64,000 bases of DNA from Squalus acanthias (taxonomy: Eukaryota). The stretch is taken from NCBI GenBank assembly GCA_030390025.1, contig CM059432.1:51090001-51154000 (forward strand), in the 5' to 3' direction. Shown piece by piece: positions 26,454-47,459 of the stretch (positions are counted from its first letter, which is position 1; each line of letters starts with the position of its first letter). The translations under genes were made by a program, and so were the position numbers. The notes under the pieces were generated by a model. The model saw only the letters and a program-made list of their open reading frames with translations, did not search any database and was not told where the DNA came from.

Positions 26454-27841
26454 TGTAATTTGTAATGTTTCTGCCCATTCGAAGTCAATGTGACTAAGGT
26501 TTTAAAAAGTGAAACACAGCAAACTGTGTTAAAGCAGTAATGCCAACCCCACTGTCTCATAAATCATGAGACAAACTCTTAAAAGTCACGAGATTGGTAA
26601 GAAATCATGAGTTGCTATTCTTTTCAAACATAAACCAATATAGAGGTACAGTTTGTTTATAAACCTCATTATTGGCTTTATTTAATCTGTAACAGGTCAT
26701 AGCTCTTTACAAAAACTATATCACTGCATCTGAAAATGCTTTACAAAAAACTTTTAAAACTCCTACCTGTTATCTCCACATTGCTACATTTGGGTACTCC
26801 TCTTGAGTTTCGGGTGGGTAATTTTCCAGTATGAGGTAAGCATAAAATTATTATATTCTAAACAAAATTAAGACTTTGTAATGCCCGGTTCTTCAAAGAT
26901 TCAGTGAGGCGTGTGACAATGCTAATGATATTGATGTGGGGTCTGATGATGGATGATATTTGGGCTCAGGCAGATGTGGGCTCGGGCTTGTTTCTGGAGT
27001 AACAGCCACAGCCACAGTCTCGCTCTGCAGCTCACTGTCTGCCCTATAGGCTGTTTACCATTCCCAGCACCAGCAGCTGCCTGTGCCGTCTTCCATGTCC
27101 GAAGTAATACTGTGTAAGATGCAGACTGACCTGCTGCACATGCTCAGTATTTTCTGAGTTACCTGCTCATGAGCAGTAATGACAAACATTGTAAGAATTA
27201 GAAACAAAAGAAGGCATTCAGTCTATCCAGTTTGCTTAGTCATCCAGGTTTTTTTCTCAGGATCTGATTAGACCATATTTTAAACATAATTTTACTATCC
27301 CTCTACTTTTACCCATCTACTCACATTCAACCTTTGAATTCTGTGGAAACTGAAAATATGCAAGAGTTTTTGAGATACAAAAATATAACTTTCCCTAAAA
27401 TAATATCAGCATCAGATATACATTACTGCAGTTTATGAATGAACCATCTGTACAATTATTTTGGCATATGGTTTATGCCATTAAATAGTCCAGTGAACCA
27501 CTGACTAATACCCACTGAATCCACCAATATGAAGGCTGCAATGGATTAGCAATGTGCTGTTACAGCAGAGATTTGATCCAATGCTTGTCATATTGGATAA
27601 AACTGATTTCAGACAAACGGGTATCTCTCAAAAAAAAACTGTATTAGCTATTTACAAATATCAAAAGAGCTCCAGTTTCACAATACTTATATGTCATATG
27701 TGCAAATATTTCATGATAATCCAATTGTGACGTAGCCCACCTAGAACTTCTTGTTCATTGATTATGTAATTATGTTATCATGGAATATTTTCCATATTTT
27801 GTCATATGTATATGTCATATAGTGTTATAGAGGTTTTTTAC

Positions 27842-27972
27842 CACTTGCTGAACTTTATCTGCCATGGAGACAAATTCAGGGATATCCTTTCTTCGATACT
27901 CAGGAACAAATTCAACATTAGCTATATGGAATAATCCAGCGAAATATAAAGCATTACTGTTTTGAGTCCGCC
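27842..27972 (-). CDS. TMPRSS7: Single coding exon: start of the SEA domain of a matriptase-3/TMPRSS7-like type II transmembrane serine protease
   Basis: Acceptor TTTCTTTCTGTTGTGCAG and donor GTAAAA; 131 nt, phase 1 to 0; reads RTQNSNALYFAGLFHIANVEFVPEYRRKDIPEFVSMADKVQQV versus recalled human KTESKDAFYFAGMFRITNIEFLPEYRQKESREFLSVSRTVQQV. Absent from the ORF track. Confidence 0.85.
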
Positions 27973-28019
27973 CTGCACAACAGAAAGAAAGTTACACTTT
28001 TAACATATATTTTTAATGA

Positions 28020-28570
28020 ACGTGACACTACATTTGACGCCGTCACCAGAGAAACATTTGCTCCGCTGTCTAATAGCGTGGCGTGAAACAAAAAGGGAAG
28101 AGCTTGTGGAGCAGGGAAACCCAGCGCCGCTGCACAAAGCTCATGGGGCCCAGAGAGAGCTGGGGTGGGGGGAGCTGGGGTGGGGGGGTGGGTGAGAGAG
28201 AGCACGGCACATGATCCGCTCGCCTCCACTCTGCCTCCGGCCGGGTGCCCAGCAACGTGAGCCACGAGTCGGGGTGCGCACGAAGAGAGCGCTGGGTGCA
28301 CGCAGCGCAGGAATGGAACACTCGCTACTGAAGGTTCCAATCCCTGTGCGCGTGCCGCCGGGGAGCGTTCCAATCTCCGTGACCAATGCTGAGCGGCGCT
28401 GCCGTGCACTGAATAATCGGAGTTATGCCGTGCTGTGGAATTCCCGCCCAGCATCATTGCGTCATTCCCTGAGAACAAAAACCCGCCAGATTTCACAGTT
28501 GAATCCCGAGATCGTGAGTTGGGTTAAATTTTAATTAAAAATCTTGTGTCTCGCAATTAATTTGCGAGAG
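28020..28570. promoter_or_regulatory. CpG-island-like segment
   Basis: Dense intact CpGs in AT-rich, CpG-poor surroundings; immediately upstream of the SEA exon on the minus strand. Confidence 0.5.
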
Positions 28571-30426
28571 TTGGCATTACTGTTATATGGCATTAACAAA
28601 TCTTAAAATAGCCCTTGCACATTAAGGATATTAAAAAAAAAACAAGATATAAAATACAATATCCTTAACCTTGCACAGACATTAACAGGAAAGATGGGAT
28701 CATTAAAACATAATAAAATATTAATATCCTCCAAAAGCTACATGGAAGCATGCTGTTTTCAGAAAAATATGGAACTGTAATTAAGGATATTTATTTAGAT
28801 TCAGTTCTGTATTTGAAACAGTATTATATTAGGTAAACAGGTATTGTAGTCTTCGCTGTACATGTTTAATTTGAGTATGGCAATGAGAAAGCTATTGTAT
28901 CCTAATGCCATGACAGGCTCTTCAGAAATGGCAGCATTTAATTAAGAGCAATTAGTTGTGTCCCTGCTGAGAAGGCTTCAAGTAGCAACTGTCCCCATAA
29001 AGGATCATTTGCAAATGACAGCCTTGGACGTCAGTCAGTTGTTCTCCAGTTCGAGATCAGTTTCAAAATAATTTTGTTAGGCAAAAAGGGCAGAAGAGAG
29101 ATTTTGCTCAGCAAATCTCTATTGTTGGACCTGGCCAAGCACTGAAGCAGGATTCCATTCTCAGCTGTTAAAGCCAACTGGTACTAAAACGTTATATTTA
29201 TCCACCCAATATCATGGTGTTTGTTGTAGGTGAGTGCCACTCTGTGATTGCTACCGCTTGACTATAAATGCTACATATTGCTTGTGTACTCAAAAAAAGT
29301 TTTTATGGGGACCAGAAAGGAGTCTACGAATCTCTAACTAGATATATTTAATAGGAAACAGCCTGGATGCCTTTAGATGAACCAATTTCAGTGATTATGT
29401 AATGGTGGTGCTGACTTCTTGACGTTGTTGAATGCAGATCCTAGCGTCCATTGTCCACATATCCTATTCTGACGTTGAAGTAAAATTTGACCTGTGCTGA
29501 TTGTTGATACCTCAATAATAACACTGAAGGGTTGTTCTGAACTGTTATATTTAGCATCCGGTCCCAGGAGTAGTCAGATATATCTTGGTTCAGCCAAGCT
29601 TATTGGATGCTCCTTTCTTCATGTACTCTTGATGTACTGGAGTCTATTGAATTTTCCTTACTTCTAAATGGATTTGTCTGCTCATTACATTTCATATTAC
29701 ATGTTGGTGGCAATACTTGGTGTGTTGTATACTTGCATACTGTCATCACCATTTTGAAATTGTGGATAAGTTTTATCTTTATTGTTCTGGTTTGCATAGT
29801 CTCCACTTCATTTTAATTTATAAAAATCTTTAAGGAAATGTTTTACAAAATACAAACAGGAAAAGAGTTCTTTAAATTATGTAATTAATAGGTGCTCTAA
29901 TAAAGATCAGTACGGTACAGGTACTGAGCAATATCAAGGCTTGGCATGACATCCTATGATAAATCCTATTTCTACACTTAACACGTGCAGTGTGATTTAT
30001 TACTCGCATACCACATTTTTGCATAAAATGTCCCAGAGACAGTCAAAATACCGGTTTCTGAGTAGAGCTGAATGATAACAAACCACTTACCCTCACTAAC
30101 ATTCAAACTTTTATAAACTAATCCCCATTTCAGGATTCCTGATTGTATGCACATTTGTATTTTAGACCTGCAAGCAAAATTACATCAATTCTTTGAAACC
30201 AAATTCTGTGATATTTAACATACATACACTGTTTTGCGAAAACACATGTGAAGGAAAATATTGGCATTGAGAATACACCGTGCAAATATTAATGCACTCA
30301 AGCTTAATGCATTTGTATCAAATTCCTTTGCCTCCTATTAAAACCTATTTTAAATGGATTGATGGCTCGAGTAAAATAATTTCAAGACCATCGTATTGTT
30401 TTCTGATACAGTACTTCTGAAACAAT

Positions 30427-45934: not shown

Positions 45935-47459
45935 TCAGCAGTCAGAGCTTGGACTGCCGCAGGCCAAAAGCATCATGGCAGCTGCCTGGGAATCTTGCGC
46001 AAACCTGCAGAAATATCTTTATGTGGATGCGCACCAGCTGCATATTGACGGAGTGGAAGCCCTTGCCTTTTACGAATACTCCTGGGTGATTTGGGGGTGC
46101 CCGGATTTTCACGTGTGTATAGTCGGTGATGTCCTGCACCTGTGGGAAGCCAGCCAGATATGCAAACCTGAGTGCCCACTCATTCTGATTGGTGTCATCG
46201 CTGGCGAAGTTGACTTAATTGCTTGCCCTGGCAAACAAGCCATCAGTCACATGTCTTAGGTATTTGTGGGCCGCCGACTGGAAGATCCTGGATGTGTCTC
46301 TGGCAGAACCCTGGAAGGATCTGTAGGCAAAAATGTTGAAGGTGGTGGTCACTTTCACAGCCACTGGTAATGCATGGCCACCAGGTCCAGCAGGGAGCAG
46401 GCCTTCTTCTAGGAGGCTGCAGATATCTGCCACCACCTGACGTGACAACCTGAGCCTCCTGAGCTGTTCAGATATGTCAAGGAAACTGAGTCTCTGCCTG
46501 TAGACTCTGTTTTGTGCGTAGTGCCTCCTGTGCGCTGCACCCCTCTGCAGCTCCCCTCTCTGCTTGTCTCCTCTCTGCTACTCCCGATTCTGCTGGTCTC
46601 CTCTCTGCTATTCCCCTCTCTGCTGGTCTCCTCTCTGCTGGTCTCCTCTCTGCTGGTCTCTATTCTGCTGGTCTCCTTTCTGCAGCTACCCTCTCTGCTG
46701 GTCTCCACTCTGCTGGTCTCCACTCTGCTGCTCTCCTCTCTGCTGCTCTCCTCTCTGCTGGTCTCCTCTCTGCTAGTCTCCTCTCTGCTGGTCTCCTCTC
46801 TGCTGCTCCCCTCTCTGCTGGTCTCCTCTCTGCTGGTCTCCTCTCTGCTGGTCTCCTCTCTGCTGCTCTCCCCTCTGCTGCTCTCCTCTCTGCTGGTCTC
46901 CTCTCTGCTGGTCTCCTCTCTGCTGCTCCCCTCTCTGCTGGTCTCCTCTCTGCTGGTCTCCTCTCTGCTGGTCTCCTCTCTGCTGGTCTCCACTCTGCTG
47001 GTCACCTCTGCTACTCCCCTCTGCTGGTCTCCTCTCTGCTGGTCTCCTCTCTGCTGCTCCCCTCTCTGCTGGTCTCCACTCTGCTGGTCTCCTCTCTGTT
47101 GGTCTCTTGTCTGCTGGTTTCCTCTCTGCTGCTCCCCTTTCTGCTGGTCTCCTCTTTACTGGTCTCCTCTCTGCTGGTCTCCTCTCTGTTGGTCTCTTGT
47201 CTGCTGGTCTCCTCTCTGTTGCTCCCCTTTCTGCTGGTCTCCTCTCTGCTGGTCTCTTCTCTGCTGGTCTCCTCTCTGTTGCTCCCCTTTCTGCTGGTCT
47301 CCTTCTGCTGCTCCCCTCTCAGCTGTTCCCCTCGCTCCAGCTCCCCCTCTGCTGCTGCCCTTTCTGCTGTCCAGCTAAAGGTCTCTGAACAGCAGGCTGG
47401 TGCTGGTGCTGGTGGTGGTCATATTGGTCCTCATCCGAGGTCCAATCTAAGGCAGCCAT
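45935..47459 (-). pseudogene. HARBI1-type DDE transposase, N-terminal and central part, disrupted
   Basis: RVYRQRLSFLD..LRLSRQVVADIC, HALPVAVKVT, ITDYTHV, KGFHSVNMQLV, RFPGSCHDAF; truncated against the Myb 3' end. Confidence 0.9.
46540..47370. repeat. 15-bp minisatellite (CTGGTCTCCTCTCTG)n, roughly 50 or more units
   Basis: Seen directly; explains the SREET, LLVSS and SPLCW ORFs. Confidence 0.97.

Follow-up and report, generated by a model that had tools for sequence, protein, structure and literature searches.

Transposable elements that hold host DNA between terminal inverted repeats (TIRs), known as Pack-TIRs, were surveyed in animals by Tan et al. (2021, PMC8277862), who reported 370 of them, including four multicopy ones (1.4%, in frog and alligator) and none in the elephant shark; statements on this and the other cited papers refer to the accessible parts of their texts. 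The filters used in that survey demanded an identity of at least 90% and a length ratio of 80–120% to one parent, and the conclusion was that most captures had occurred without transposition. Here we consider a stretch of 64,000 nucleotides from the shark Squalus acanthias (C8:51,090,001–51,154,000, contig CM059432.1 of assembly GCA_030390025.1; genome 3.7 Gb), hereafter called the window. At positions 26535–28582 it contains an element of 2,048 bp carrying a piece of the gene TMPRSS7. This element is confirmed as an old, multicopy Pack-TIR whose family has taken up host DNA repeatedly and from more than one locus: host sequence lies between TIR ends, the parent locus is free of such ends, and the copies have distinct flanks and target site duplications (TSDs). 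An initial annotation, made from the letters of the window, had proposed a candidate vertebrate Pack-type element; it proves to be a multicopy one, although not the first, because capture in vertebrates had already been reported (PMC8277862).

According to Tan et al., Pack-hAT-N8_XT, which holds the 5′ untranslated region (5′ UTR) of CAPSL, is likewise a TIR element with host DNA inside and an end-free parent on another chromosome, and the multicopy animal Pack-TIRs share with the shark family several copies with distinct TSDs and microhomology at the junctions (PMC8277862). Whereas the animal examples given there have one parent each, at least six end-free donor loci were found for this family. 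The filters of that survey (PMC8277862) favour young cases with a single parent, and old mosaic elements would be missed. Plant Pack-MULE, Pack-CACTA and Pack-hAT elements, as described by Gisby and Catoni (2022, PMC8903248), resemble the shark family in their common ends, variable interiors, DNA from several loci and nested subgroups gaining internal pieces; unlike the plant Pack-TYPE elements of that account, it belongs to a vertebrate, has a 6-bp TSD and gives no sign of the proposed tandem-insertion intermediates. Capture, amplification and then the substitution of a fresh capture for some of the cargo make up a pattern best known from plants, and this pattern likely occurs here in a vertebrate.

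In the literature outside subscription journals, Repbase and Dfam, neither this family nor any shark Pack-TIR was found to be described, and the family may already be named in curated repeat libraries. Helitrons, which move by a rolling circle, have neither TIRs nor TSDs, whereas this family has both. The gene-capturing Helitrons of bats (Thomas et al. 2014, PMC4224331) resemble it as DNA transposons of a vertebrate that take up one piece after another; among their pieces, promoters, 5′ UTRs and first exons are overrepresented.

Origin and copies of the TMPRSS7 cargo

The element is bounded by a perfect pair of 13-bp TIRs, CAGTAATGCCAAC at 26535–26547 (+) and its exact reverse complement at 28570–28582 (−), and the first 12 bases of each occur only once within the window. 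Between them lies an exon of 131 bp (27842–27972, minus strand) with intact splice sites, AG before and GT after, and 43 codons without a stop; the TIR pair and the exon lie where the initial annotation had placed them. It corresponds to the start of the SEA domain of TMPRSS7, its match to SEA (PF01390) being weak and below the cut-off (E 0.0015). A profile search related its protein to a SEA-CUB protein of Chiloscyllium (81% identity) and to pike and ground-squirrel proteins named TMPRSS7 (53–54%); a word-indexed protein search, Atlas and PDB gave nothing for the 43 residues.

The complete multi-exon TMPRSS7 gene, which the annotation had suggested looking for, was found with the pike TMPRSS7 query and subsequent local tblastn at C5:144,081,196–144,151,503, its exons following the order cytoplasmic plus transmembrane, SEA, CUB, LDLa and trypsin. 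The captured DNA (882 bp, 27154–28035, minus strand) matches this gene at C5:144,089,150–144,090,770 and nowhere beyond, and that stretch has no element ends. Identity is 79% over 135 bp and 89.5% over 753 bp, the latter value being just under the 90% search cut-off of Tan et al. (PMC8277862). Besides the exon, the cargo includes 63 bp of the upstream and 688 bp of the downstream intron. Because introns flank the exon on both sides, it was copied from DNA and not from mRNA, and the capture thus took place at the DNA level and not by retroposition. The window exon agrees with the donor at 40 of 43 residues (93% in the search) and differs by four amino acids when codons are counted.

The two matching blocks are separated at the donor by a repeat of 745 bp (C5:144,089,903–144,090,647), which is missing from the full-length element copies. 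It has its own GGGCC-type inverted ends, a likely 3-bp duplication and two relatives nearby, and judged by these features it is best read as a miniature element, presumably Harbinger-like, that was inserted into the donor intron later. The opposite explanation of the gap, a deletion within the captured element, was rejected, since the repeat is on the donor side and possesses inverted ends of its own. Within 340 kb around the donor, element ends are represented only by a degenerate right end of 97 bp at a distance of 31 kb, and a search of the same 340 kb for more cargo gave two pieces only.

The initial annotation had weighed capture against the possibility that this exon is part of the real TMPRSS7 gene, whose introns would then be very long, and that the two element ends are independent fragments. 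The intact exon and splice sites would agree with such a gene, yet its whole counterpart stands on C5, no other TMPRSS7 exon was detected by tblastn in 124 kb around the window element (in accordance with the absence of neighbouring exons already noticed by eye), and a copy on C2 has the same ends, the same cargo and a perfect TSD. The probability that this is the real gene is therefore negligible.

Since each genome search scored no more than 40 candidates, the counts given here and below are lower bounds. The exon region gave 16 matches among 16 candidates, namely the donor and 15 copies, which are distributed over five independent sites, four of them with one copy each (the window, C2:109.02 Mb, C5:45.07 Mb and C10:133.44 Mb) and the fifth, at C5:73.2–74.4 Mb, with a cluster of 11. 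The C2 copy is bounded by TIRs, has the same layout as the window copy and is flanked by the perfect 6-bp TSD CATTTA; additional TIR-bounded copies of this kind had been named in advance as a sign of capture. The donor and the copies are 87.7–91.5% identical, and the independent copies are 85.5–90.2% identical to each other.

Segmental duplication instead of transposition is a true explanation for the C5:73.2–74.4 Mb cluster, where 10 of 11 copies share one left flank (the left end of the eleventh is outside the fetched stretch) and the four copies compared are 96.7–98.4% alike. At the other sites the flanks are unrelated and begin exactly at the TIR, and the similarity to the donor ends within the element; these observations refute duplication for the copies in the window, on C2, on C10 and at C5:45 Mb, and duplication as an account of the copies in general is extremely improbable. 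The full TMPRSS7 piece is present in four of the 11 segmental duplicates and its upstream part alone in seven. In runs X5 and X7, contigs of high depth may indicate that the expansion of the cluster is common to another species. Intact-looking orphan exons and promoter fragments scattered by such elements can mislead the annotation of shark genes.

Ends, target site duplication and class

The duplication was studied in 30 complete and distinct members of the family, in which at least 10 of the 13 positions of each TIR could be recognised. Their 6-bp flanks match perfectly in 12 cases and at five or more of six positions in 20, and flank identity at this length is 0.81 in comparison with 0.30 (maximum 0.42) in 500 shuffled pairings. 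Among lengths of 2 to 10 bp, the flanks matched at 6 bp alone. The canonical 8-bp TSD of hAT elements was rejected: at 8 bp no copy of 30 is perfect, and the identity of 0.30 is close to the control value of 0.26. The initial annotation had read the window flanks as an unconvincing 8-bp duplication matching at four of eight positions; this reading is to be replaced by the 6-bp sequences TTAAAG (26529–26534) and TTATAT (28583–28588), which appear to be decayed copies of one TSD.

A TSD of 6 bp defines hAT6, which is grouped with hAT5 in a lineage including Blackjack, and it is also found in IS3EU, whose ends are TAY..RTA (PMC12730594). The shark family resembles hAT6 in its 6-bp TSD and in short TIRs beginning with CAG, whereas the ends of IS3EU do not fit and this candidate was rejected (PMC12730594). 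From TIRs and TSD, we infer that the family is hAT6-like, with the difference that no transposase has been linked to it. Scans of 21 and 34 interior frames revealed no transposase domain, and four long interiors consist largely of generic repeats or microsatellites.

Another element, C8:58,557,702–58,559,252 (positions 1003–2553 of locus L303), has the same TIR, a perfect 6-bp TSD, the family right end, a left end matching over 89 bp at 92%, and an open frame of 87 codons. Of five other TIR elements compared with the family ends, one showed a weak end match of 40 bp and four showed no similarity.

A modular family, its donors and the route of capture

Copies of the family have their ends in common and differ in their interiors. 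The terminal 146 bp gave 1,034 first-look candidates. In the 30 best loci examined, homology to the window mostly ceases at about 245 bp from the left (220–260 bp), and three members of the wider family match the right end over 40–85 bp only; most of the 2 kb is therefore not terminal sequence. The left end proper may be placed at 26535–26780 (+) from these homology limits, and the right end proper, of about 85 bp with subterminal repeats, at 28496–28582 (+) from the comparison of ends across the family. The window copy has the layout A-B-T-x-Rp-R and its sisters have the layout A-B-C-G-x-Rp-R, modules C and G occupying in the latter the position of the TMPRSS7 piece. Precursor-type copies of the second layout are L150, L152, L154 and L204.

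Modules G and x form one block matching C8:61,365,262–61,365,860, which is situated 350–950 bp upstream of a frame whose identity to NOL4 or NOL4-like proteins of sharks and rays amounts to 97–99%; the piece is likely the promoter and 5′ UTR of NOL4. Sister copies carry up to about 600 bp of the NOL4 upstream region, and the window copy retains a remnant at 28036–28234 (+), with a small G-rich expansion inside, which corresponds to C8:61,365,418–61,365,262 at 91–92% in two blocks. The cargo of the window copy consequently comes from more than one host locus. TMPRSS7, which the initial annotation had regarded as the captured cargo, was indeed captured and is only one of several such pieces.

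Further to the left, a piece of 126 bp (26789–26914, +) matches a stretch that stands alone within the first NOL4 intron (C8:61,360,919–61,361,044; nhmmer E 4.9e-27), so that two NOL4 pieces stand 4 kb apart at the donor. This piece may have been captured early, or else a stray fragment of the element resides at the NOL4 locus. The adjacent module B (26915–27153, +; 85–86 first-look candidates) is common to many sister copies, and the GC-rich inner right segment (28235–28495, +; 118 first-look candidates) belongs to a part of the family only, being absent from the wider-family members in which only the last 40–85 bp are shared; no source was found for this segment.

The donors of sister cargoes are single loci without element ends in the stretches examined, and each cargo has between 7 and 32 first-look candidates. 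A transgelin piece (C5:144,042,243–599, 20 candidates) contains the end of a non-coding 5′ UTR exon together with its splice donor; in one presumed-RNA contig of depth 3.1 this exon is joined to the first coding exon of transgelin across a GT-AG intron. The gene is presumably TAGLN3, a gene syntenic with TMPRSS7. A piece from C14:30,473,472–474,208 (32 candidates) precedes the first coding exon, a short one, of a presumably STK32-like gene; no kinase exons were recognised by motif in 63 kb downstream, and PDB gave no match. One subfamily, the I-type copies (9 candidates), joins in a single element a piece from C28:21,207,715–208,030 and the end of a methyltransferase exon from C3:98,712,541–679. 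One more piece derives from C25:6,834,175–448 (7 candidates). Less certain donors are the NOL4 intron with its 126-bp piece, C24:3.984 Mb and C1:103.88 Mb. The TMPRSS7 and transgelin donors are 47 kb apart. The transgelin match was obtained by a genome-wide search, and the chance of any pair within 50 kb among eight donor loci is about 1/1,000 (28 pairs × 100 kb / 3.7 Gb), so that a source element near this locus is likely. No resident copy remains there, and the remnants found near donors, one left-side piece and one right end in about 590 kb of donor regions, are too few to demonstrate a local origin.

For the NOL4 upstream DNA and the C28, C14 and C25 pieces, donor–copy identity exceeds or approximately equals the identity between copies. 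The observed/expected CpG ratio is 0.66–1.08 in the NOL4, transgelin, C14 and C25 pieces, and a bias towards the 5′ parts of genes is suggested. We put forward only tentatively, as a somewhat doubtful generalisation, that the hAT6-like family is a vertebrate cut-and-paste shuffler of gene starts, repeatedly capturing promoters, first exons and exon–intron pieces from its neighbourhood, stacking them and spreading each mosaic. If this were true, its copies, about 1,000 in number, would document the serial captures in a form that can be dated, and host genes would receive functional promoters or exons from some of them.

Summarizing these data, it may be concluded that the window element is very probably a non-coding cut-and-paste copy with 882 bp of TMPRSS7, likely acquired through a template switch in a NOL4-carrying element and likely spread in trans. 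In the simplest order, NOL4 upstream DNA would have been captured first and modules C and G would then have been replaced by TMPRSS7 DNA. A break or an excision gap in a non-autonomous copy would be repaired by synthesis that jumps to a host template at a short similar sequence and then returns, and the mosaic product would be mobilised by a transposase, perhaps of hAT6, supplied in trans. The capture itself and the spread are directly visible in the copies, and we infer the order of captures, the template switch and the nature of the transposase; in our opinion, the repair route is rather probable. At the left TMPRSS7 junction, a shared AG is included in a match of four of five bases, and at the right one a shared ACGTGA is followed by a shared CATT/ATT.

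The route proposed for plant Pack-TYPE elements, in which two neighbouring insertions move as one together with the DNA between them and are later trimmed by deletions (PMC8903248), deserves attention, since the TMPRSS7 and transgelin donor pieces are 47 kb apart and have the same orientation in the element. However, the donors lack flanking element ends, the sole remnant being a right end on the wrong side; no examined copy carries both pieces; their divergence from the donors is unequal (TMPRSS7 about 89%, transgelin 82% identity); and the junctions lie in microsimilar sequence, with no internal TIR remnant inside the window element matching the window patterns. Such a tandem origin is unlikely. 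The nested subfamilies, with their identifiable donors and junctions, permit a direct test between template switch and tandem insertion.

Several observations weigh against the proposed history of capture by template switch and spread. The junction microhomology was read by eye, and its length may be due to chance. The superfamily is deduced from TIR and TSD only, with neither an autonomous element nor a transposase found. Both ends are retained at just two of the five cargo sites (the window and C2), and the TSD of the window copy itself matches at four of six positions. For the transgelin, NOL4-intron, C3 methyltransferase and C24 pieces, donor–copy identity is 82–86% in comparison with 89–90% between copies (3–6.5 points lower; 85.9% and 89.0%, respectively, for the NOL4-intron piece), so that either much time must have passed from capture to spread or some of these pieces may be stray element fragments; the case for these four captures is weaker on this account. 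The source of modules B, E and Rp was not found, and no empty orthologous site was seen among contigs of related species.

As to module B, nine unplaced matches were fetched and all carry other element modules, none being an end-free locus; C8:72.31 Mb was rejected as a donor because it is an element copy. Modules B, C, E and F gave no Pfam match under E 0.03 in 21 frames, a hint of Thyroglobulin_1 (E 0.13) being treated as chance, and none of 197 candidates scored for a frame of 152 amino acids across B and C. Many interior differences between copies are nested pieces of long and short interspersed elements (LINE/SINE) and not host captures. Further interior types, with dozens of copies each, are represented by L240, L242, L249 and their relatives (L269–L302); no donor was found among 14 N-type loci examined, and one candidate (L282) was found among 20 M-type loci. 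Some copies (L088, L233, L234, L164–L169) contain GA- or G-rich microsatellites, expanded into arrays that reach about 8 kb, which may have grown from captured seeds; similar repeats adjoin the C3 and NOL4 donor pieces. The copy L086 (C5:131,954,000–131,956,700) has an internal inversion and a tandem run with a unit of about 34 bp near its right end.

Age, decay and surroundings of the window copy

Contigs of organisms E and B cross the right junction and extend 72 and 33 bases, respectively, inside the element; the insertion therefore predates the separation of these species. The corresponding contig of organism C extends 27 bases inside, which is below the threshold. Another contig of organism C covers 27673–27861 with 13 gaps and was not assigned to the orthologue.

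In comparison with a majority-rule ancestor, the five independent copies of the exon accumulated 7 synonymous and 20 replacement changes. Synonymous (pS 0.064), replacement (pN 0.049) and intron (0.062) values are similar (Fisher p 0.37), and pN of the donor is 0.010; by this measure the copied exon evidently decays neutrally in the copies. It is very unlikely that selection keeps the window copy as an exon or as a regulatory part of some host transcript. In favour of selection, only two independent copies have an exon without an indel, and of these the window copy alone has both AG and GT; it shows three replacement changes where about six are expected at the intron rate, and the insertion is common to other species. 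Against selection, the pooled copies have no deficit of replacement changes, the length of 131 bp is not divisible by three, and the one host exon recognised in the vicinity, at a distance of 44 kb on the right side, is on the opposite strand. The intactness of the window exon needs no selection, although a single copy has little power in this respect. No RNA data set was listed as containing the element, which speaks neither for nor against its expression; the copied exon shows no sign of function, and the window copy is probably inert.

The neighbouring host exon encodes a PKA RI/RII-binding motif of the AKAP type (PF10470, E 3e-8) at C8:51,162,573–51,162,791 (+). A domain search near the window and this exon gave no match to an AKAP7 catalytic-like domain, and the gene may presumably be AKAIN1; the window is possibly intronic to it. 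A tandem array of about 55 copies of a 15-bp unit occupies 46543–47369 of the window.

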